Source: Spirochaetaceae bacterium | GTDB taxonomy: Bacteria > Spirochaetota > Leptospiria > Leptospirales > Leptonemataceae | Length of the DNA: 64,000 nucleotides | Assembly: GCA_002730875.1 (NCBI GenBank) | Contig: PCBI01000005.1 | Coordinates: 901,191-965,190 of the forward strand | Direction: 5' to 3' | In this document: piece by piece, positions 2,786 to 60,865 of the stretch | How positions within the stretch are numbered: the first letter of the stretch is position 1 | Layout of the letters: each line of letters opens with the position of its first letter | Made by a program: the position numbers and the translations under genes | Notes under the pieces: generated by a model | The model's database searches: none | Seen by the model: only the letters and a program-made list of their open reading frames with translations | Told to the model about the DNA's origin: nothing

Positions 2786-3126
2786 ACTTGCCAAATGAAC
2801 TGGCGGGAAAGCCCGGATGACCTTTTTTCCATCGTAGCCCAACCACAGGTCGCAAAAGGGTTCGCCAATACCTACCTCCAAACAACCTGCACTGTATAAG
2901 AGCGTCTCCTGATTGGTCCCATCGGAATAGATGGAGTCAGGGAATGAGTCCAGGCCCCTACAGCTAAAGGATTCCGGGGTCCAGGCCTGATCCTCCATTG
3001 GTTGCGCTTGACCGGGTTTTCCTTTCTATGTTCCCTGGATCTCTTCCTGTGAAATGCCGGAGCCTGCCATTGTTGCCCATGATACAGGACGGCTTTTCCG
3101 GACGGCATCCGAAGTGGAGTTTCCCA

Positions 3127-5667: not shown

Positions 5668-7182
5668 TCAGTAGCCGTAAAGCTTCATACTCCAGGATGT
5701 GAATGTACCGTTGGCTGTACCGCGTACTCCTTGATCTCTCAGACGCAATGACCAGGTGCCATCCGCCGACTCACCCATGGTACGCAGCACACCAAATCGC
5801 CAGGTTCCGGTAAAGGGGCAGTTTCCGTTGGCTTCAATCGTCGGTGAGGCTACGGCAATATTAACGCAGATTCCGTCACTGCCCCTGGATAGAAGGATAC
5901 TTTGCGTCCCGGACGGAGACGTAAGAGTGATATCCAGATCGCGATAGTAGTTGTGACTGAAGGTAACGTTGACGTCTACGGACTCAATTGTGCTTATCCC
6001 GCTACCGCTCACCACAATGCTGTTTGTTACTCCGGTAGCGTTGCCGTCGGTAACGGTTGCACTCACTGTACTCGTAGAAGTCTGGAATGTCTTTTGTGTC
6101 GCCAGGCTGATCCAGTTCCGCGCCAGGTTTACTGCTGCGTTAGCATCTACCACGCCAAAGCCATATTTATGGTTGATGTTCAGTCCCGCCCCGTTGGTGG
6201 TCCAGTCCGAGTCCCCAGAGTTGTTCTTGCGCGCCGTACGTGCCAGGATCATGCGAACATCGCGCCAGGAAAGGTTGGGGTTGGCATAGAGCATCATCGC
6301 CGTTACTCCTGCTACTTCAGCGACGGCTGTGCCGGTGCCCGTGGCCAGCTTCGTATAATTCGAATCGCTATAGTCCGAGCCGGAACTGCCGTTGTTGTAG
6401 CCGCCGGCGCCCGTCGTATCGGTGGTGCGGATTCCAATATCTCCATTTCCTTTTGAGTGACCGCAAACTAGCAGGTTGGCGCCCTGTTCGGAAAATGATG
6501 CGCGGACTCCGTCGTGGCCCACCCCGCAGATGGCCATTACGCCGTGATAATTTGTATATCCATTGAGGTTGGAATTGTCTATACCCGAGAATGACGAAAC
6601 TGTATCGCCGTCGCCGGAACCAAAGAAGTAGAGCGCGCCCAGGCCGTTTCTGCCCAGGGATAGTCCGCTATCTATGGCGCTTCTCCATTCGCTGGTTGAG
6701 TCCTGGAACTTCCCGCTGAATTCAGGCTCCGACCATCCGTTGGCATAGACGGAAACTTCGGACAGGCCTCTTATCATCGCATCTGCGTCATTGGTCGTGC
6801 TTCTGTTCTGCGAAACGTTGAAGCCTCGCAATTTTGCATAGGGAGAAACACCGCGTCCCCCTTTGTTGTTTGGCTCCGCTGCAATGATGCCGGCCATGGC
6901 CGTGCCCAGTCCGGTACCGGCCGTTCCTGGATCGGTTCCTCCATTCGAATAATTATGGCTTTTGCCCCTTTCTACGTTATTCGCCAGGTCCTCATGGTCT
7001 ATGTCCAGGCCGTCGCTCACAATGGCAATGGATACTCCGGTGCCGCAGTTACCGGTATTCCAGAGATTACTGACGTTTGCATCTTCGCCGGAGGTGCCGC
7101 TGGTTTGCCCCGTATTCTCCAGGTGCCATTGATCAGAAAACAGGGAATCCGAGTTAGTGGAGCAGTTTGCTTGATTGAGCAA
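5668..7182 (-). CDS. Kexin/furin-like (S8B) subtilase homolog with P-domain, predicted catalytically inactive; possible pseudogene
   Basis: Blocks align to Kex2/furin: 'AIVSDGLD' vs 'AIVDDGLD', 'LGTAMAGIIAAEPNN' vs 'HGTRCAGEVAAVANN', 'GTGTAVAEVAGV..NPNLSWRDV' vs 'GTSASAPLAAGI..NKNLTWRDM'; P-domain 'DLDITLTSPSGTQSILL..WSLRL'. TTG start immediately after an in-frame TGA; no ATG or n-region. Confidence 0.7.
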   Translation of the reverse strand: MLNQANCSTNSDSLFSDQWHLENTGQTSGTSGEDANVSNLWNTGNCGTGVSIAIVSDGLDIDHEDLANNVERGKSHNYSNGGTDPGTAGTGLGTAMAGIIAAEPNNKGGRGVSPYAKLRGFNVSQNRSTTNDADAMIRGLSEVSVYANGWSEPEFSGKFQDSTSEWRSAIDSGLSLGRNGLGALYFFGSGDGDTVSSFSGIDNSNLNGYTNYHGVMAICGVGHDGVRASFSEQGANLLVCGHSKGNGDIGIRTTDTTGAGGYNNGSSGSDYSDSNYTKLATGTGTAVAEVAGVTAMMLYANPNLSWRDVRMILARTARKNNSGDSDWTTNGAGLNINHKYGFGVVDANAAVNLARNWISLATQKTFQTSTSTVSATVTDGNATGVTNSIVVSGSGISTIESVDVNVTFSHNYYRDLDITLTSPSGTQSILLSRGSDGICVNIAVASPTIEANGNCPFTGTWRFGVLRTMGESADGTWSLRLRDQGVRGTANGTFTSWSMKLYGY

Positions 7183-11865: not shown

Positions 11866-11949
11866 TGGGCAGGGGAGGATTCGAACCTCCGTAGACTCGC
11901 GTCGGCAGATTTACAGTCTGCTGCCATTAACCACTCGGCCACCTACCCG
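11866..11949 (-). tRNA. tRNA-Tyr (anticodon GTA), type II long variable arm
   Basis: Reverse complement GGGTAGGTGGCCGAGTGGTTAATGGCAGCAGACTGTAAATCTGCCGACGCGAGTCTACGGAGGTTCGAATCCTCCCCTGCCCA folds as a cloverleaf; anticodon loop ACTGTAAAT. Confidence 0.85.
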
Positions 11950-11950
11950 A

Positions 11951-12027
11951 TGGTGCTGCCTGTAGGCCTCGAACCCACGACCTGCTGATTACAAGTCAGC
12001 TGCTCTACCAGACTGAGCTAAGGCAGC
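11951..12027 (-). tRNA. tRNA-Thr (anticodon TGT), CCA encoded
   Basis: Reverse complement GCTGCCTTAGCTCAGTCTGGTAGAGCAGCTGACTTGTAATCAGCAGGTCGTGGGTTCGAGGCCTACAGGCAGCACCA; acceptor stem pairs fully; anticodon loop CTTGTAA; 1 nt from tRNA-Tyr. Confidence 0.85.
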
Positions 12028-29969: not shown

Positions 29970-30536
29970 ATGCTATTTCGGGCAATCATTCGAATCAATG
30001 CTCTGGGATTTCTGATGATCTGTTTGGTCTACCCGTCAAAGCCTGGGGCCGAGCCCCGGGAGGCTGACATTGAAGCCGTTTCCGAAAATCCCAGGAACCC
30101 CGGCGGCGAAGGCGACGAGCAAACGGGACCAGACTCCGAAGAGCGCAAAGCTCTGGAGTTCTTTGAACTTCATCAAGAGCTGGCCGCAAACTTTGATCCC
30201 GGACTGGCAAAGCACTACCATCCGGAGGCCAGGATTCGAATGGTAAGGATTGGCGCCGACGGTTCCGTGCGAAAGATGGAACTGACCGGAAGTCAGTGGT
30301 CCTCATTAATGCCTGCTATGATGGATGCCGCCGAGAAATCGGGAGACGTCAGTGTATACAGCGACATCCGATTACAGTCCATGGATACAGGCATCAAGAT
30401 ATTGGCCAGCCGCTACTCTAAATTAAAGTGCTACACGGATAGTAAATACTATATGGTGGTGGCGCCGGGCCCGGACGGAAGTCTGCTCGTCGTAGAAGAG
30501 CACATAGAAGGCCAGGCAGAGAACCAATGCGAATAG
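29970..30536 (+). CDS. Hypothetical secreted protein
   Basis: Within ORF 29634..30536; start at MLFRAIIRINALGFLMICLVYPS (signal peptide) avoids overlap with the upstream gene. Confidence 0.4.
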   Translation: MLFRAIIRINALGFLMICLVYPSKPGAEPREADIEAVSENPRNPGGEGDEQTGPDSEERKALEFFELHQELAANFDPGLAKHYHPEARIRMVRIGADGSVRKMELTGSQWSSLMPAMMDAAEKSGDVSVYSDIRLQSMDTGIKILASRYSKLKCYTDSKYYMVVAPGPDGSLLVVEEHIEGQAENQCE

Positions 30537-31084
30537 CGCTGGCAATCACGGACGAGGAAATCCAGCGGTGCTATCCGGCGCTTTCGCAGCTACGGCCGCA
30601 TATCTCTGAAGGCCAGTTCCTGGAACGGATCCGGCAACAAATGCAGGGCGGTTATGAACTGGCCTACCTGATTGGCGTGCCAACCCCGTCTGCGGATTCT
30701 ACTCCGCTCGTCGATACTACTCCGGTCGCTGATTCTACTCGGGCGGCTGCGGGAAACGGTCTGGCTCAGTCCGTAAGCGAGCCTCAAGAGCCGCCATCTC
30801 GAGCCTCCGAAACCGAACGAGTATTGACCGTAGCCGGGTTTCGCATGGGTCTGAACCTGGCCTGGGGTAAGTATCTTTACGTGGATGATCTGGTTACGGC
30901 AGAGGTTGCCCGTAGCTCCGGTTGGGGGAGGCAAATGCTATCCTGGTTAATGGATCTGGCTCGATCGAGAAGCTGCGATCAATTCCATCTGGACTCGGGG
31001 CTGCAACGAAGAGAGGCCCACCGGTTCTACGAAAGGGAAGGAATGGAGATTAGCAGTTACCATTTCTTCAAACAGTTACATTGA
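30527..31084 (+). CDS. GNAT family N-acetyltransferase with internal low-complexity insertion
   Basis: 'YLYVDDLVT..SGWGRQMLSWL..AHRFYEREGM' acetyl-CoA-binding blocks; 'PTPSADSTPLVDTTPVADSTRAAAG' insert. Confidence 0.7.
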   Translation: MRIALAITDEEIQRCYPALSQLRPHISEGQFLERIRQQMQGGYELAYLIGVPTPSADSTPLVDTTPVADSTRAAAGNGLAQSVSEPQEPPSRASETERVLTVAGFRMGLNLAWGKYLYVDDLVTAEVARSSGWGRQMLSWLMDLARSRSCDQFHLDSGLQRREAHRFYEREGMEISSYHFFKQLH

Positions 31085-35037: not shown

Positions 35038-35169
35038 ACGCTGCTCCAGGATAGATTATTCTGACACTGTGTCAGCTTTCTGGGGAGAGTCAAACGGTTA
35101 TTGGGCTTATTTGAAGGTTATCCGGCGCTTGCTCCCGATACGAATGCCCGCGGTGTTGGTGGCCTCGGT

Positions 35170-35528
35170 GGAGTTCGGGTTAGAGCTCCGGGGCGGTGAT
35201 TACACGAACCCGGGGCTCTGGTTGCTCCGGCCGGAGTTCGGGTTAAAGCTCCGGGGCGGTGATTACACGAACCCGGGGCTCTGGTTGCTCCGGCTGGAGT
35301 TCGGGTTATAGCTTCCGGGCGTTGATTAAGCGAACCCGGGGCTCTGGTTGCTCCGGCCGGAGTTCGGGTTAAAGCTTCCGGGCGTTGATTAAGCGAACCT
35401 GGGGCTCTGGTTGCTCCGGGTGGAGTTCGGGTTAAAGCTTCCGGGCGGTGATTAGACGAACCCGGGGCTCTGGTTGCTCCGGCCGGAGTTCGGGTTATAG
35501 CTTCCGGGCGTTGATTAAGGGAACCCGG
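35170..35528. repeat. Tandem repeat, 63-bp unit x ~5.7 copies (GGAGTTCGGGTTAAAGCTCCGGGGCGGTGATTACACGAACCCGGGGCTCTGGTTGCTCCGGCC and variants)
   Basis: Copies start at 35170, 35233, 35296, 35359, 35422 and 35485, with a few substitutions each; open in frames on both strands. Confidence 0.9.
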
Positions 35529-35562
35529 TCGATTTTCTGGTCGATTTTCTGGTCGATTTCCT
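35527..35562. repeat. Tandem repeat, 12-bp unit GGTCGATTTTCT x 3
   Basis: Directly abuts the 63-bp array. Confidence 0.85.
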
Positions 35563-35678
35563 GGTGATGACCGGGTGTAGCCCCGGCGAGGGCCAACGAG
35601 GACTTGCAGAAATCGCGGCGCAGAAGCCGGGAATTTCGGTTGCGTAAGACAGACCGAACGCATAGACTCTGGAAATCC

Positions 35679-36008
35679 ATGAATCTGAGCGATTGGTTAC
35701 ACGTATCCTTTGACGATGCACAGGTGCATATGAAGGCGAATCCCCCGGAAAAACCGGGCTGGGAGCAATCCTTCGCCTGGGATGACATCATTCGAATTTG
35801 TTTTGAAAACGGTGACTGGCTAAGTTCAGACACCATCTACGTTTTCACGAACCAGCGGAAAGAAAGCTACGTTATTCCCACCGAAGCCGATGGTGGGGCG
35901 GAGTTCTGGTCCGAAGTGATCAGCCGAAAGTTGTTTGATGCGGAACTGGCTATTGAAATGGCCACGCAGTCCGAAGGCTTCGCCTGCTGCCCGCCGGAAG
36001 ACTCATAG
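35679..36008 (+). CDS. Small hypothetical protein
   Basis: ORF 35604..36008, probable start MNLSDW at 35679; no motif. Confidence 0.35.
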   Translation: MNLSDWLHVSFDDAQVHMKANPPEKPGWEQSFAWDDIIRICFENGDWLSSDTIYVFTNQRKESYVIPTEADGGAEFWSEVISRKLFDAELAIEMATQSEGFACCPPEDS

Positions 36009-43371: not shown

Positions 43372-45519
43372 CTATTCTTCGGGCAGGTGATTCAGATACT
43401 GAAGCATGGCGCGAAAGAAGAGTTTATCTTCTTCTTTCGTGTTTAGCTGGATCGTGGTTCCGCCGCTAACCTGTACGCCAGAGGCCTGGTCCAATTTGCT
43501 TTTGAACTTCTCAATCAGTTCCTTCTTGTGACCATGAACATAATCGTGTCCGGCATAAACGTGACCCTTCCCGGGTACCGGAATACGAATTAAGGCCGCG
43601 GTGGATTGCGCTCCTGCATCCACAAGACCCAGGACCTTCTGGGCGATCTCCCGCTGGTTGGCATTTGCCAGTCTGAGCACCTGCTCCCGGTCGGGATAGA
43701 AGCTCTTGTCCCACATCATATTCACCTGGGTTAGCAGATAGTTCAGAACCTCCTGGGCTTCGTGGTCGAATCCGGCGGAATCCTGTTTGCTATTGAGATC
43801 CGCCAGCGGGGAGCTTTCTTCGCGTGCTCGCTGTCGGGCCAGGGTCTTTACGTCCTGTTTCGCCCGTTTAGTGTTCGCCCGGCTCTTTCTTTCTGCACGA
43901 CTTCTTTCCTCTTCGCCCCGCTCCATATCCAGGCGTCGCTGGATCTTCTTGATTTTCGCATCGCTAATGCGCTTGCCAGTGAGCGCCATCCAGATTCGCT
44001 CCAGGGGCGAAAGGTATGCCTTGTAGGAGTCTCGAATCGCTTCCCTCAGTTGCTCCAGGTATGCGGGGGCCACATAGTGCTTGAGTTCGGAATCCGGTAA
44101 TTTGTTTAGCTGCAGCAGGTCTTCCAGAATTCGAATCAGAAATGTGTCTTCTGTTTTGTTGTATGAGTCCAGAGCTGTTTGAATGGCCTGACCCGTGATG
44201 GTACGGTCTTTGTAGAGCAAATAGATAGTGTCATAGTCTGATGCTTCGCGGTGACCGCCCTTGCTCAGCGGTGGATCCGCCGCAATGAGGACCGGGCTGT
44301 TGGATTCGTTCAAGAACAGATTCAGGTACTTTTCGTCTATGTTAATCTTCCTTCCATTCTTTGCGCGAAAGATCCCCTTCTGGCCCTTTAATCGCTGCAG
44401 TATCTGCTGAATCTCTTGCTTCTGCTTATCCTTCTTATGCTCTTTCGACTTTTCGTCATACCATTGTCGCAAACGAATGGCTTCGGCCGCTATTTCCACC
44501 AGGAAGCCGGGGATGCTTTCTTGCGACTTTGCATGTTCCAGAAGGAAGTGTGCCCCGGTTTCGGCCGCGTCTTCAAGATGGCCGGATTGCATGAAGCGGT
44601 GCATCTGCTGTCGGGTTCGGTCGTCCACCAGTTCCAGAACTGCCTGATGACTCAGGATTTCGCACAGCCTGGCGAATCGATGCTGTACATTTTCCAGGAT
44701 GTTAAACAATACAATGTCAGGAATCTTCTGGCCGGTCTGGTTTCGGATGTCCTGACAGGAAAGACTGAAGATCATCTTCTCCCGCAGAAGATCCATAACT
44801 AGCGGCCGAAATAGTTTGATCCGCAGGGACTGATTGACTCGCTTCAGAGTGACTTCATCGGAATGGCCATCTTCGTCCTCTTCCTGAACTGCTGCCCCGG
44901 CATTCATGGAAGAGAAATACATATTGCCCAGCATGGATTCCACGCGCCCGGCTCGGGGATTGGCATCCTGTATTTTGTTAAAGGCAGGCCCGCCGGGCAA
45001 GGGCGGATCCAGATCCCGGATCATGGACTTAATATGAACCAGGTTGTTGCGAATCGTAGAGCGATAAGCCACTGACACCTTGTCCGGATGCTTTTCGGTT
45101 GGAGCCACCAGTCTGGTAACGAATTCGGGCGAAGTGGCGTTAGTTGGGATCTCGCGTAAAATGTGCAGGAATGGCGGGGACTGCACGGACATCAGACAAA
45201 CGGTTCGCAGCAGCTCAGCTTCCGACGGCATGGGGGTCTTGTCGGAAATGGCCCGCTTGTGCATCTGCAGATCGCCATAAATGTCGGCCAGGGAAGGATA
45301 ATAGGCGTCCTTGCCAGCCCGGGCTCCGGTGAGAAAGCTTTGCACCAGGTCATAAACCTGGTTGGCCAACCTGGATCGGCTCTTGAGCGGAGCGATGATC
45401 CTGGAATCGTCCAGCTGAAGATTGCTCAAGGTCTTCAGAGCCACATCCGGGGCCATTGCATCGAAAATGCCGCTGCCTTCCCCCTTTTCCTGGGAAGCGG
45501 CGCTCTGATTCTCGCTCAC
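43372..45519 (-). CDS. Large (715 aa) hypothetical cytoplasmic protein with central coiled-coil/charged region
   Basis: Long intact ORF with no recognised domain; lysine/arginine-rich helix 'KKIQRRLDMERGEEERSRAERKSRANTKRAKQD'; His-rich 'GKGHVYAGHDYVHGHKKE'. Confidence 0.6.
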   Translation of the reverse strand: MSENQSAASQEKGEGSGIFDAMAPDVALKTLSNLQLDDSRIIAPLKSRSRLANQVYDLVQSFLTGARAGKDAYYPSLADIYGDLQMHKRAISDKTPMPSEAELLRTVCLMSVQSPPFLHILREIPTNATSPEFVTRLVAPTEKHPDKVSVAYRSTIRNNLVHIKSMIRDLDPPLPGGPAFNKIQDANPRAGRVESMLGNMYFSSMNAGAAVQEEDEDGHSDEVTLKRVNQSLRIKLFRPLVMDLLREKMIFSLSCQDIRNQTGQKIPDIVLFNILENVQHRFARLCEILSHQAVLELVDDRTRQQMHRFMQSGHLEDAAETGAHFLLEHAKSQESIPGFLVEIAAEAIRLRQWYDEKSKEHKKDKQKQEIQQILQRLKGQKGIFRAKNGRKINIDEKYLNLFLNESNSPVLIAADPPLSKGGHREASDYDTIYLLYKDRTITGQAIQTALDSYNKTEDTFLIRILEDLLQLNKLPDSELKHYVAPAYLEQLREAIRDSYKAYLSPLERIWMALTGKRISDAKIKKIQRRLDMERGEEERSRAERKSRANTKRAKQDVKTLARQRAREESSPLADLNSKQDSAGFDHEAQEVLNYLLTQVNMMWDKSFYPDREQVLRLANANQREIAQKVLGLVDAGAQSTAALIRIPVPGKGHVYAGHDYVHGHKKELIEKFKSKLDQASGVQVSGGTTIQLNTKEEDKLFFRAMLQYLNHLPEE

Positions 45520-53324: not shown

Positions 53325-54677
53325 ATGAAAAACAACGAAATCCATCCCGGTTCAAAATACCGACCAGTTGTGCCAGTGGAGCTTCCGGACCGAACGTGGC
53401 CATCGAAGCGAATCGAAGCCGCGCCCCGATTCTGTAGCGTAGATTTGCGCGATGGAAACCAGGCTCTTGTAATTCCCATGGAACCGGAAAAGAAGGCCCG
53501 GATGTTTCGGACGCTGGTCGGCATGGGCTTTAAAGAGATCGAGGCCGGTTTTCCATCGGCATCGGCGCCGGACTTTAATTTTCTGCGATGGCTGGCTACA
53601 TCGGGAGCGGTACCGGAAGATACGTATATCCAGGTATTGAGTCAGGCGCGACAGCATCTAATCGAAAGAAGTTTCGAGTCTATAAGAGGACTGGATAAGG
53701 TAATCTTTCATGTGTACAACAGCACTTCGCCGGCGCAGAGGGAGTACGTATTTCAGAAATCCAGAGAGGAAGTGATTCAAGTCGCGGTGGATGCCGTGCG
53801 TCAGATCAAGACTCTGGCCCGGTCCTTTCCTGGCGAATTTGTTCTGGAGTATTCGCCGGAAAGCTATTCGGCCACCGAGCCGGACTTTGCACTGGAAATT
53901 TGCCACGCAGTAATGGAAGAGTGGGCGCCGTTCGAACCAGGATCTTTGATCTTAAACTTACCATCGACCGTGGAAGTCACCACACCCAACTTGTTCGCCG
54001 ACCAAATTGAATGGTTCTGTCGTAACCTCAACAATCGCAAGGATGTCGTAATCAGCGTCCATCCGCACAATGACCGTGGCACTGCAGTGGCCGCGGCGGA
54101 GATGTCTCTTCTGGCCGGAGCCGATCGATTGGAAGGGACGCTCTTTGGTAACGGCGAAAGAACCGGAAACGTGGATCTGGTGACTGTGGGTCTCAATATG
54201 TTGAGCCAGGGAGTGGATCCGGGCATTGACTTTTCCCACCTTCCGGAAATCAGGCAGGTATACGAGCAAACCACGGGAATGACGGTTCCGCCCAGGCAAC
54301 CCTATGCCGGTGAACTTGTATTTACTGCCTTTTCGGGTTCGCATCAGGATGCCATTCGAAAGTCCCTGAATGCGCGAAAGAAGCGAGGCGATTCGGGGGC
54401 CTGGGATATCCCTTATTTGCCGGTAGACCCCGCCGACATCGGCCGGAGATACGAAAAGTACATTCGAATTAATAGCCAGTCCGGGAAGGGCGGCGTTGCC
54501 TATGTGCTCGAAGATCAGGGTTTGGATCTGAGTTCTATACCAGTACGAGACTTGATGGATTTCGCATCCCTGGTTCAAGCCGAGGCTGAAAAGAAAGGCA
54601 CCGAACTCAGTAGCCTGGAGATTCTGGAGCTCTGGTCCCGGAAGTCATCGAACGCCACAACAGCGGGCCCCGTCTAG
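53325..54677 (+). CDS. leuA: Long-form (LeuA type 2, actinobacterial-like) 2-isopropylmalate synthase homolog lacking the C-terminal regulatory domain
   Basis: 'KYRPVVPVELPDRTWPSKRIEAAPRFCSVDLRDGNQALVIPMEP' closely parallels the M. tuberculosis LeuA N-terminus; HMGL-like barrel with 'HPHNDRGTAVAA'; ends at 450 aa. Confidence 0.75.
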   Translation: MKNNEIHPGSKYRPVVPVELPDRTWPSKRIEAAPRFCSVDLRDGNQALVIPMEPEKKARMFRTLVGMGFKEIEAGFPSASAPDFNFLRWLATSGAVPEDTYIQVLSQARQHLIERSFESIRGLDKVIFHVYNSTSPAQREYVFQKSREEVIQVAVDAVRQIKTLARSFPGEFVLEYSPESYSATEPDFALEICHAVMEEWAPFEPGSLILNLPSTVEVTTPNLFADQIEWFCRNLNNRKDVVISVHPHNDRGTAVAAAEMSLLAGADRLEGTLFGNGERTGNVDLVTVGLNMLSQGVDPGIDFSHLPEIRQVYEQTTGMTVPPRQPYAGELVFTAFSGSHQDAIRKSLNARKKRGDSGAWDIPYLPVDPADIGRRYEKYIRINSQSGKGGVAYVLEDQGLDLSSIPVRDLMDFASLVQAEAEKKGTELSSLEILELWSRKSSNATTAGPV

Positions 54678-54786
54678 GCCCGTCGTTGGCTGCAGCCCTG
54701 GCACTCGCTTCGGGCTACGATAGGCCTGGAACGTAGAGGTCAGTGCGGCGGAACCTGCCAGACGGAGGGCGAACCTTGGCCACAGG

Positions 54787-54828
54787 CCACGGAGCTTAGC
54801 CATACGGCCACGGAGCTTAGCCATACGG
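54787..54828. repeat. Perfect 21-bp tandem duplication (CCACGGAGCTTAGCCATACGG x 2)
   Basis: Read directly in the convergent leuA/oppC intergenic region. Confidence 0.9.
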
Positions 54829-54849
54829 CGGTCAGCGCGGCGCCAGAGC

Positions 54850-55881
54850 TCAGGGATCATGATCCTGATATTTAGGATCAAACGCTTCGCGCGCCCCTTC
54901 GCCTATGAAGGTGGCCATGAGCAGAGTAAAAAACAGCGCCAGAACGGTGCTAATGGCAATCCAGGGAAAATCCAGATTGTCCAATCCCTGCTGGAGTAAT
55001 TCGCCCCAGGATGGAGTGGGAGGAGGCAGGCCAAAACCCAGGAAATCCAGCGCTGTGAGCGAACTAATGCCTGCGATCAAAGTGAACGGCAGAATTGTAA
55101 TCAATGGAGTCAGCGCATTGGGAAGGATCTGGCCCATAAAAATGCGAACCGAGCCCAGGCCGCTGGCCCGGGCGGCCTGCACATAGGTTTGACCGCGAAG
55201 CTTGAAGAATTCTCCGCGCATATAGTAAGAAAGGCCCACCCAGCTAAAGAGTGACATGACCACAAGGAGCATCCAGAAGTTCTGGCCGTAGATTGAGCCC
55301 AGCAGAATGACCACGTACAGAAAGGGCAGGGCGGACCAGACTTCTATGATTCGCTGCATGACGATATCGGTGCGTCCTCCCAGGTAACCCTGGATGCCGC
55401 CGATGATTACTCCGAGAAGACCGCTAAGAACGGTGAGACTCAGCGCAAATAGCATACAGATGCGAAAGCCGTAGAGCAGACGGGCAAACACATCCCGGCC
55501 AAGGCTGTCGGTGCCCAGCCAGTGTCGTAAGGAAGGCGGATGCGGCGGGGGGTCCTGGTCGGCCAGGTCGGCCTCCAGGGGATTGAATGGCACCGGCGGA
55601 AAGACGGCCCATCCCCTTTCTTCGAAGTCTGCGGTTTGTCTTAGAGCGCGGTAGTCGGCTTCGGTTCCGTACTGCTGGCCCAGTTCCTTGCCCGAGTAAA
55701 AGAACAGAAGCGGAAAGTAGGTACTTCCGTCGTAGCCCATGACAATGGGTCGGTTCTCGGCGATGCATTCACTGAACAGAGATAGGCCAAAGAGCGAACT
55801 CAGCAAGATAAGCGAAAAGTAGGCCCGCCGGATGCTGCGAAATCGTCGCCATCGCTCTATTGTCAGATCCGAGAATCTCAC
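54850..55881 (-). CDS. oppC: Peptide ABC transporter permease (OppC/DppC-type)
   Basis: 'HWLGTDSLGRDVFARLLYG' and the EAA-loop region; 6 TM. Confidence 0.85.
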   Translation of the reverse strand: MRFSDLTIERWRRFRSIRRAYFSLILLSSLFGLSLFSECIAENRPIVMGYDGSTYFPLLFFYSGKELGQQYGTEADYRALRQTADFEERGWAVFPPVPFNPLEADLADQDPPPHPPSLRHWLGTDSLGRDVFARLLYGFRICMLFALSLTVLSGLLGVIIGGIQGYLGGRTDIVMQRIIEVWSALPFLYVVILLGSIYGQNFWMLLVVMSLFSWVGLSYYMRGEFFKLRGQTYVQAARASGLGSVRIFMGQILPNALTPLITILPFTLIAGISSLTALDFLGFGLPPPTPSWGELLQQGLDNLDFPWIAISTVLALFFTLLMATFIGEGAREAFDPKYQDHDP

Positions 55882-58789: not shown

Positions 58790-60865
58790 GTGTCAAACAT
58801 GCATTTTAAATTTCGCGTACCGATACTACTATTGGGAGCCCGTTTTTTTTGCGCTGTCCATGGCCGGGGGCGGCAAGACCTTTCGCCGCCGCATCTGCGT
58901 CGCTCGAGACGCGGTTGTCGTTCGTTGGTCCGGGCCCTGTCGCAGCCATCTCTTGTGCTTCTCTTTCTGATCCTGCTCCCCGTCCTACACTGCAATCGTC
59001 CGCTGAATCATCCCTATCCGGAAACCGTTGGCAATAACTGGCATTTAATCGCCATGTCATCGGAGCCCTCCACAATGGATCCGGTGCGCATGGCCGATGG
59101 CCCTTCCTACACCGTGGCATCCAACCTGGCCATCACGCCTTTTCGGTATGCCTATCTGAAGCGGCCCATTCAAATGGAGCCCCTTCTGGCGAGAGAGATA
59201 CCCTCAATCAAGCCGGGCGCTTTAGACGGCCAGCCCGTCCACTTTTTTGACCTGAATCTGGACACCCATTACTACGCGCCCGTAGAAGAATGTCTCAAGG
59301 ATTCGCATCACGATGGTACCGGCCGTCCGGTATTGGCGGCGGATCTGGAATTGAATCTTAAGCGCAGCGCCGATCCTGCCAACGAAGCATTTATGATATC
59401 GCTGCTTTCAAAGAGTATTGTAGGTTTCGCCGATTATAGCGAATATCTGCAACTGGCGCGACAGGAAAAAGACATTGGCTCTTTGAGCGCCTCGGAGCAG
59501 GCCCGAGTCCTGGCGGAACTCTATTCGCGGCCCATTGATGGGGTAAAGGTTCTGGATGATGATACTCTCCGGATCTATTTAAATAGCAGCAGCGATCGGA
59601 TTCTCTATTTCTTTGCCATGGTGAGTGCGGCCCCCATTACGGAGGCCTGCTGGAGAGAATTCAACAGCCGCGATAAGGACCAGAACGCTCTGGAAAGAAC
59701 AATGATTTCCTCCGGCCCGTATTATTTGAAGAGCTGGGAACCAAGGGATCGCATTGTTCTGGAAAGAAACACTCTGTATCGTGATCGCTTTCCGGCCCTT
59801 CCGGAGGACTCCAGCCAGTGGCCGGATGGCCTGCAGAAACATCCGGAAAGAGCCCGAGAAATGTCTTCGCTTGAGGGAAAACCTCTTCCTTTGACCGATC
59901 GCGTAATCTTCTATCTTATCCAGTCCGGATCCACTGTATGGACCCTCTTCGAGCAGGGGTATCAAGATCGAGTAGCCCTTACGAAGGACTCTTACGAAGG
60001 AGTCCTGGATGGCGAAGAACTCCGGCCGGAGTACAGGGAGCGCGGGGTTCGACTGAGCACCGAGGCGGAGCTTACTACATTCGGTTGGATTTTCAATCTT
60101 CGCGACCCCGTCGTAGGTCGCAGCGTTGAATTGCGAAAAGCCATTCGATGCATCATTGATCCCCGGGAATTGATCAATCGGTTCTACGAAGGGCGAGCCA
60201 TGGTCGCTTACGGATTGCTTCCCCCAGGTATGGAAGGTTTCGAACCGGAAAAAGAGGCCCGGAAATGCACGAAAGGGTACGTCGACAATCTGCTATCCAG
60301 GGCCGGGTATGCGAAAGGCATTGATCCGGAAACCGGAAAGCCCCTGGTTCTGCGATTGATCGATGTGCCCCGGCCCGCCAGCGCAAGTTTCCATAGTTAT
60401 CTTGTGGAGCGCATTGCGAAGCTCGGCATTCGCCTGGAAGTGGATCTGTTCGATGCGCCTACATATTTCGAAAAGAGAATGAAGGGCAAATTTCAGATCA
60501 CCACCTGGGGATGGGGCGCCGATTATCCCGATCCGCAGAATTTCTTTCAACTATTCTACGGCGGAAATGCCGGAACGCCTTACAACGAGGCGCATTTTCA
60601 GAATGCCGCCTTTGACCAGGCCTATCGCGCACTGGACGAAGCCAAAGATCCTGCTCGTCGCCAGCAGTTGATAGATCGCATGAATTCAATTCTGGAAGAG
60701 GAAGTGCCCGTACTTCTGTTGTTTCACAGGATAAACTATGGTATTTCGCAACCCTGGCTTTCGGTCTACGAACCTCATCCCATGGGATACAATTTGCTAC
60801 AGTATCGGGGAGTAGATTCAGAGCAGAGGGATAGGTTCCAGAGCGAATACAACTCCATTTTCTGA
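58790..60865 (+). CDS. Second SBP family 5 peptide-binding protein, divergent from the first
   Basis: 691 aa; signal-like 'MHFKFRVPILLLGARFFCAVHG' and a second hydrophobic segment; family-5 SBP core; start uncertain. Confidence 0.75.
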   Translation: MSNMHFKFRVPILLLGARFFCAVHGRGRQDLSPPHLRRSRRGCRSLVRALSQPSLVLLFLILLPVLHCNRPLNHPYPETVGNNWHLIAMSSEPSTMDPVRMADGPSYTVASNLAITPFRYAYLKRPIQMEPLLAREIPSIKPGALDGQPVHFFDLNLDTHYYAPVEECLKDSHHDGTGRPVLAADLELNLKRSADPANEAFMISLLSKSIVGFADYSEYLQLARQEKDIGSLSASEQARVLAELYSRPIDGVKVLDDDTLRIYLNSSSDRILYFFAMVSAAPITEACWREFNSRDKDQNALERTMISSGPYYLKSWEPRDRIVLERNTLYRDRFPALPEDSSQWPDGLQKHPERAREMSSLEGKPLPLTDRVIFYLIQSGSTVWTLFEQGYQDRVALTKDSYEGVLDGEELRPEYRERGVRLSTEAELTTFGWIFNLRDPVVGRSVELRKAIRCIIDPRELINRFYEGRAMVAYGLLPPGMEGFEPEKEARKCTKGYVDNLLSRAGYAKGIDPETGKPLVLRLIDVPRPASASFHSYLVERIAKLGIRLEVDLFDAPTYFEKRMKGKFQITTWGWGADYPDPQNFFQLFYGGNAGTPYNEAHFQNAAFDQAYRALDEAKDPARRQQLIDRMNSILEEEVPVLLLFHRINYGISQPWLSVYEPHPMGYNLLQYRGVDSEQRDRFQSEYNSIF

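Follow-up and report, generated by a model that had tools for sequence, protein, structure and literature searches.

The 641-bp divergent gap at 35038..35678, between a fatty-acid hydroxylase gene and a small ORF of a Spirochaetaceae bacterium, carries a tandem array that is best explained, with a probability of about 0.68, as a young, lineage-specific, non-coding minisatellite (VNTR) lying upstream of a conserved promoter-like element. All positions refer to the window, i.e., the whole 64-kb stretch of DNA that was analysed, and the features of the gap are collected in Table 1. The original prediction of a 63-bp array of about 5.7 units, followed by three 12-bp units in a divergent intergenic region, was confirmed by TRF, and the positions of the flanking genes were confirmed as well.

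Table 1. Features of the divergent gap and its two flanking genes in the 64-kb window
Feature	Position	Strand	Details
Fatty-acid hydroxylase / sterol desaturase family gene, 433 aa	33736..35037	-	PF04116, E = 3.4e-29
Promoter/operator-like element of the hydroxylase gene	35061..35093	-	TTGACT at 35093..35088, then palindrome CTGACAC-N-GTGTCAG at 35061..35075
ORF181, 181 aa, ATG start, spanning both arrays	35118..35663	-	Called by metagenome gene callers
63-bp tandem array	35170..35528	.	TRF: period 63, 5.7 copies, 91% matches, score 571, 0 indels
Perfect 12-bp palindrome CTCCGGCCGGAG at unit junction	35225..35236	.	Units in register
12-bp tandem array, GGTCGATTTTCT	35527..35565	.	TRF: 3.2 copies, 96% matches
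Lineage-restricted 109-aa hypothetical protein	35679..36008	+	Codon log-odds 0.30; position conserved in relatives

With its units in register, the 63-bp array comprises five full units and a sixth that ends at unit position 44 and is directly adjoined by the 12-bp array. The units are G+C-rich, diverge from one another by 9%, and are arranged head to tail within the size range of VNTRs or minisatellites (~10-100 bp). Two main unit types can be distinguished: units 1 and 2 are of type A (..GCTCCGGGGCGGTGATTACACG..) and units 3, 4, and 6 are of type B (..GCTTCCGGGCGTTGATTAAGCG..), while unit 5 is a mosaic of both, which points to exchange between units. Ten positions vary along the unit (14, 19, 21, 27, 34, 35, 36, 42, 62, and 63), and seven of these fall in unit positions 14-36, bearing out the earlier impression that variants are concentrated in mid-unit. 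The palindrome CTCCGGCCGGAG recurs every 63 bp: the copies at 35351 and 35477 are likewise perfect, and those at 35288 and 35414 contain one and two mismatches, respectively. A single copy is found outside the array in the 64-kb window (60020..60031), within an ORF at 58790..60865, probably by chance. Local alignment of either flank to the 63-bp unit was no better than that of shuffles and gave no evidence of flanking partial units. A CRISPR array was ruled out because the 63-bp units abut directly, without spacers, and a replication origin with iterons was ruled out because no skew inflection is present at the array locus.

Searches for further copies of the unit indicate that the array is a single-locus feature. 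When up to three mismatches were allowed, the remaining 63.6 kb of the window still contained no copy of the 63-bp unit, and none of the window shuffles matched it either. The exact 23-nt core of the unit was absent from 185,579 species-representative genomes, JGI metagenome contigs, and IMG/VR, collections which apparently do not include this organism; a scan of metagenome contigs for the 109-aa ORF likewise returned no match. The absence of the unit core from the rest of the window and from these collections argues against a dispersed or mobile repeat family. REP or BIME elements, which are dispersed and often made up of alternating palindromic units of ~21-65 bp, do not fit the array, as all of its copies are direct and lie at one locus. 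A MIRU-like family was rejected on similar grounds, with a single locus in the window and no core match in the genome, metagenome, or viral collections, and the divergent gap does not correspond to the MIRU position inside an operon with an ORF overlapping the ends of adjacent genes. MIRUs occupy ~40-50 loci per genome and are operon-internal, with small ORFs that overlap the ends of neighbouring genes (Supply et al. 1997, per PMC3184786). The array shares with them tandem intergenic units of 40-100 bp, a high G+C content, internal inverted repeats, ORFs running through the repeats, and copy-number polymorphism (PMC3184786), but it differs in being known from one locus, in lying in a divergent rather than a polycistronic context, and in having an ORF that ends 81 bp before the start of the next gene.

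Comparison with related species suggests that the array is recent. The closest homologues of the hydroxylase among 5.8 billion proteins are 58-60% identical, and a scan of species-representative genome contigs gave relatives of at most 60% identity among the matches listed. Three related species were available for comparison (loci L003-L006; L007; and L008/L009), all represented by Leptospiraceae, Leptonemataceae, or Spirochaetaceae MAGs. Gene order is the same on both sides of the gap in all three, with Inositol_P, DUF6498, amino-acid permease, class IV aminotransferase, radical SAM, small ORF, hydroxylase, Band_7, GNAT, and MBOAT genes following one another. In these three species, only 132-217 bp separate the small ORF from the hydroxylase gene, and this stretch contains neither a tandem repeat nor a called gene. 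Subtraction of the 396 bp of repeats from the 641-bp gap of the window leaves 245 bp, near the range of the relatives. Together, the short repeat-free gaps of the relatives and the size of this remainder indicate that the array arose, together with ORF181, as a lineage-specific expansion. An unrelated tandem repeat with 3.3 copies of a 40-bp unit, whose length is not a multiple of three, is present elsewhere in one relative (L008, 1332..1462; 92% matches). It lies between the DUF6498 and permease genes, a gap occupied by a small hypothetical ORF in other species. Its position at a different locus indicates that intergenic minisatellites arise at various loci in this clade.

Marine assemblies, among them those of Tara Oceans, contain hundreds of contigs encoding the flanking proteins, which are assigned to a Spirochaetaceae bacterium MAG; some of these contigs exceed 1 Mb. 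The 641-bp gap is base-for-base identical in ENA and JGI assemblies generated with different pipelines, which excludes an assembly artefact as the source of the array. Within the population, variant contigs carry no more than two substitutions in 3 kb relative to the window, indicating that the sampled population is nearly clonal, and contigs with a variant hydroxylase or small ORF are >99.9% identical to the window and are broken at the array. Copy number was scored on the 24 longest independent contigs containing the 109-aa ORF plus a short flank. The array has 5.7 copies in 20 of these contigs and 4.7 copies in the other four, and the two alleles have identical flanks over 1.9 kb. In the shorter allele, units 1 and 2 give way to one hybrid unit that begins as unit 1 and ends as unit 2, as would result from slippage or unequal exchange; the reading frame is kept, and the ORF encodes 160 aa. 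It should be noted that these length alleles were read from short-read assemblies; since units 1 and 2 share only 48 consecutive identical bases, fewer than the assembly k of 119, assembly collapse is an unlikely source of the 4.7-copy allele.

These data support the locus as a true VNTR. A change in copy number amid at most two substitutions per 3 kb also indicates that the repeat changes faster than point mutations accumulate. Comparison of copy number across assemblies, as originally proposed, thus revealed two alleles, in support of the earlier view that expansion or contraction is ongoing. The further idea of a VNTR acting on two promoters is supported in its first half, the copy number being variable (4.7 copies in four of 24 contigs). 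An effect on the promoters would be conjectural; the promoter-like element of the hydroxylase gene lies outside the array. Among index blocks, the exact 181-aa product was found in 117, the 109-aa ORF in 307, and the hydroxylase in 237. Many contigs with the 109-aa ORF are short, and two that were examined end in or beside the array. The lower number of blocks with the 181-aa product and the short contigs are as expected, because the repeat breaks short-read assemblies.

MLVA typing makes use of intergenic VNTR or minisatellite loci, such as those of Leptospira and Mycoplasma (PMC4641467, PMC2585094). Like those loci, the array consists of head-to-tail intergenic units of tens of bp that are nearly identical apart from point variants, differs in copy number between almost identical strains, and is absent in related species. 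The present locus differs in that it belongs to an uncultured marine spirochaete recovered only from metagenomes, with two alleles that come from short-read assemblies. In practical terms, the repeat breaks many short-read assemblies of this organism, and the locus could be used to mark strains of an otherwise nearly clonal, globally distributed marine spirochaete.

The hydroxylase gene is annotated at NCBI as 'sterol desaturase [Spirochaetaceae bacterium]', and the 109-aa ORF on the other side of the gap, which has no Pfam or NCBIfam family, displays gene-like codon usage. Between the array and the hydroxylase gene lies an element, not part of the repeat, composed of a TTGAC motif and the palindrome CTGACAC-N-GTGTCAG. 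The same combination is found at the same position in all syntenic species (L003 ~5935..5964, L007 ~5930..5960, L008 ~5933..5963, and L009 ~2933..2963), ~35-75 bp before the hydroxylase start in every case, and the single sigma-70-like match of a promoter scan overlaps it in the window. The element occurs once in the window; the nearest other site, with two mismatches, is at 45072. The TTGAC motif with its 15-bp palindrome looks like a promoter with a repressor operator, and the array has left this promoter-like element undisturbed. On the opposite side, 113 bp separate the 12-bp repeats from the start of the 109-aa ORF. A promoter and terminator scan of the array itself yielded nothing but a weak terminator-like match formed by the 12-bp repeat.

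Repeats located in promoters can drive phase variation at contingency loci, such as the TA repeats between hifA and hifB of Haemophilus influenzae. Tracts of this kind are built from 1-7-bp units between or beside the -35 and -10 boxes, and a single step alters promoter geometry. The array resembles contingency loci in being a repeat tract in a divergent promoter region, and the length of their tracts changes by slippage. It is distinguished from them by its 63-bp unit and its location outside the conserved promoter-like element: rather than lying in or between core promoter elements, it begins at 35170, while the element occupies 35061..35093.

The reading frame through the array demands separate consideration. 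The earlier claim that frames are open on both strands has to be corrected, since ORF181, on the minus strand, is the sole frame of six that is open through the whole array; one plus-strand frame, probably the one noticed earlier, is open through units 1-2 only, and the other four have a stop in every unit. In the frame of ORF181, the 63-bp unit encodes NQRPE and the 12-bp unit encodes NRPE. The stop codon lies 81 bp from the hydroxylase start, and the ATG lies 15 bp from the start of the divergent 109-aa ORF. In common with coding tandem repeats, the array has units whose length is a multiple of three and an ORF that begins with a start codon and runs through without interruption; it shows neither homologues nor gene-like codon usage or significant signs of purifying selection. 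The prediction had listed a repeat-protein coding region among its options, and had named a conserved repeat-protein gene with homologues as the finding that would make the array an ordinary coding repeat. Such a gene was looked for and not found, and the coding option is disfavoured by the lack of a syntenic orthologue in three species, the lack of any homologue with a 21-aa repeat, and codon statistics unlike those of genes. Overall, ORF181 is probably not a real protein-coding gene, as judged from its sequence; its frame would be open because 63 and 12 bp both amount to whole codons and the unit can be read in one frame without a stop.

Database searches with ORF181 gave consistent results. 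No Pfam or NCBIfam family was assigned, no signal peptide or domain was found, neither an orthologue nor any ORF exists at the syntenic site of the three related species, and the protein cluster collection contains no identical sequence. A word-indexed search returned one weak, low-complexity match only. Exhaustive phmmer against 1.84 billion representatives gave 211 matches, and those inspected were unrelated 6-8-aa repeats (for example, GVTRTPG, PEGATRA, and SAVNQTP), none of them with a 21-aa period.

Codon statistics were calculated using log-odds trained on the 29 long genes of the window. ORF181 scores -0.17, below every real gene of the window (0.26 +/- 0.065, minimum 0.07), with wrong frames at -0.36 +/- 0.21; the values for its unique parts are -0.26 (5') and -0.32 (3'). 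GC contents at codon positions 1/2/3 are 0.65/0.75/0.42 in ORF181 versus 0.59/0.40/0.60 in genes, so that GC2 exceeds GC3, the reverse of real genes. When the effect of composition is removed, the synonymous-choice score is -0.03 against 0.11 +/- 0.04 for genes, and a score as low is seen in only 2.9% of 71-codon chunks from real genes. Five of the 12 types of unit variant are silent in the ORF181 frame and seven are replacements, where 3.4 silent variants are expected; the excess is not significant, even though this count is the highest of the six frames (1-4 in the others). A clear Shine-Dalgarno is present in only 10 of the 29 window genes, which makes this feature of little use for judging ORF181. 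Adapted codon usage is not to be expected of a gene that has only just arisen, and the codon tests therefore only lower the probability of a coding reading.

For this reason, the possibility that ORF181 is a real gene, born recently and de novo from an in-frame minisatellite expansion, deserves to be set out, although we regard it as unlikely. Its product would be a basic, Pro/Arg/Thr-rich, intrinsically disordered protein made of 21-aa repeats (TRTPAGATRAPGSLNQRPEAL) and NRPE repeats, encoded upstream of the hydroxylase gene on the same strand, with predicted tryptic peptides APGSLNQRPEALTR, APGSCNHRPGALTR, TPAGATR, and TPPGATR. Such a gene would account for a single open frame of 181 codons beginning with ATG, for the preservation of that frame in the length variant, and for the largest share of silent variants among six frames. 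It would also account for the fact that 63 and 12 are both divisible by three and share one open frame, a coincidence with a chance of roughly 1 in 9. Comparable de novo repeat peptides have been suggested to occur in Borg elements (doi 10.1101/2022.05.18.492195). In Borgs, the units of genic tandem repeats are all divisible by three, compared to only 14-38% of intergenic ones, and small intergenic ORFs consisting only of repeats are hard to tell from de novo peptides (doi 10.1101/2022.05.18.492195). The array resembles Borg repeats and 'aaTR' proteins in being recent and lineage-specific, in having a unit divisible by three and disorder-promoting residues, and in often ending contigs; in contrast, Borg repeats are perfect, A-rich, distributed genome-wide, and flanked by partial repeats, whereas this is a single G+C-rich array with divergent units. 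The proposed gene is opposed by the empty syntenic sites of the relatives, by the absence of any protein with such a repeat among the representatives searched, by the missing signal peptide or domain, and by the codon, GC, and synonymous-choice values given above, with no significant excess of silent variants to offset them. In addition, an ATG 15 bp from the start of a divergent gene leaves no room for a promoter outside that gene. The more specific scenario of a gene caught at birth, encoding a length-polymorphic disordered repeat protein of 160 or 181 aa that has no ancestor in sister species and is co-directional and possibly co-transcribed with a membrane lipid hydroxylase gene, would be slightly less probable still. 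If ORF181 were translated, it would represent a datable case of de novo gene birth by repeat expansion, and only with proof of translation would the locus be of wider interest.

The regular palindromes raise the possibility that the array acts as DNA or as RNA. One proposal, in line with the earlier option of an array of regulator binding sites, is that a dimeric DNA-binding protein occupies six sites in the array and modulates one or both divergent promoters, with copy number setting the dose. Each site would be a nearly invariant imperfect palindrome of ~40 bp centred on CTCCGGCCGGAG, and all sites would face the same side of the helix (63 bp = 6 turns). The 63-bp recurrence of the perfect 12-bp palindrome, the location of the array upstream of two divergent genes, and the clustering of variable positions outside the palindrome, which leaves a stretch of ~40 bp nearly invariant, are compatible with this model. 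That clustering was noticed post hoc and involves ten sites only, and the relatives regulate the same gene pair without an array. Moreover, the neighbourhood contains no lineage-specific regulator gene, and the only other palindrome in 64 kb sits inside a gene, so that we consider such a regulatory role quite improbable.

Even less credit is due to the proposal that the array is transcribed as a structured non-coding RNA or a leader with repeated hairpins, such as a transcript sponging proteins or RNAs, which appears very improbable. For both strands, folding of the whole region is indeed more stable than that of shuffles (z = -3.5 and -3.75), and on the plus strand the type-A units 1-2 form a hairpin of 13 bp that includes G-U pairs (-34.5 kcal/mol, z = -3.3). 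The better folding of the region is explained by its CCGG-rich palindromes, namely CTCCGGCCGGAG at each junction and the type-A hairpin. Units of the majority type, B, do not fold better than shuffles (z = -1.3 for the plus strand and +0.06 for the minus strand). The type-A hairpin is not kept outside units 1-2, and uncompensated changes disrupt its pairs 14-49 and 21-42 in units 2-6. Rfam gave nothing at the gathering score, the only sub-threshold match being EBER1 (E = 0.2, noise); the array is not bracketed by a promoter or a terminator, and it is missing from the relatives. A structure-dependent RNA role is thus unlikely, and the palindromes may simply favour slippage.

Under the preferred explanation, a non-coding minisatellite, amplification of a 63-bp sequence in the upstream half of the gap would have produced about six copies arranged head to tail, along with three copies of a 12-bp sequence next to it. 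The likely process is slippage during replication or unequal recombination among the units, and whole units are still being gained or lost in the population, as the 5.7- and 4.7-copy alleles show. Because the array lies upstream of the hydroxylase element and ~113 bp remain before the small ORF, it most likely acts only as a length-variable spacer between two control regions. A step of 63 bp corresponds to 6.0 helical turns and would leave the helical phase unchanged, and the effect of the array on expression is probably neutral or at most modest. ORF181 would then be a by-product of unit lengths divisible by three and most likely would not yield a functional protein.

This reading has a consequence for annotation, as gene callers, and apparently also the public MAG annotation, report a 181-aa 'hypothetical protein' that is probably not a gene. 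The numbering of the flanking-gene accessions, MBU42877.1 and MBU42880.1, suggests that the public MAG annotation places two CDS in the 641-bp region, and both would be suspect. Other features were recorded elsewhere in the window. A perfect 21-bp repeat of 2.1 copies (GGCCACGGAGCTTAGCCATAC) occupies 54785..54829 in the convergent gap between the ORFs at 53325..54677 (+) and 54850..55881 (-). An imperfect 18-bp repeat of 3.1 copies (30695..30749) lies within the GNAT acetyltransferase ORF at 30527..31084 and can be presumed to be a normal coding repeat. On the minus strand, 11866..12027 contains a pair of adjacent tRNA genes (Rfam RF00005, 61 and 68 bits).
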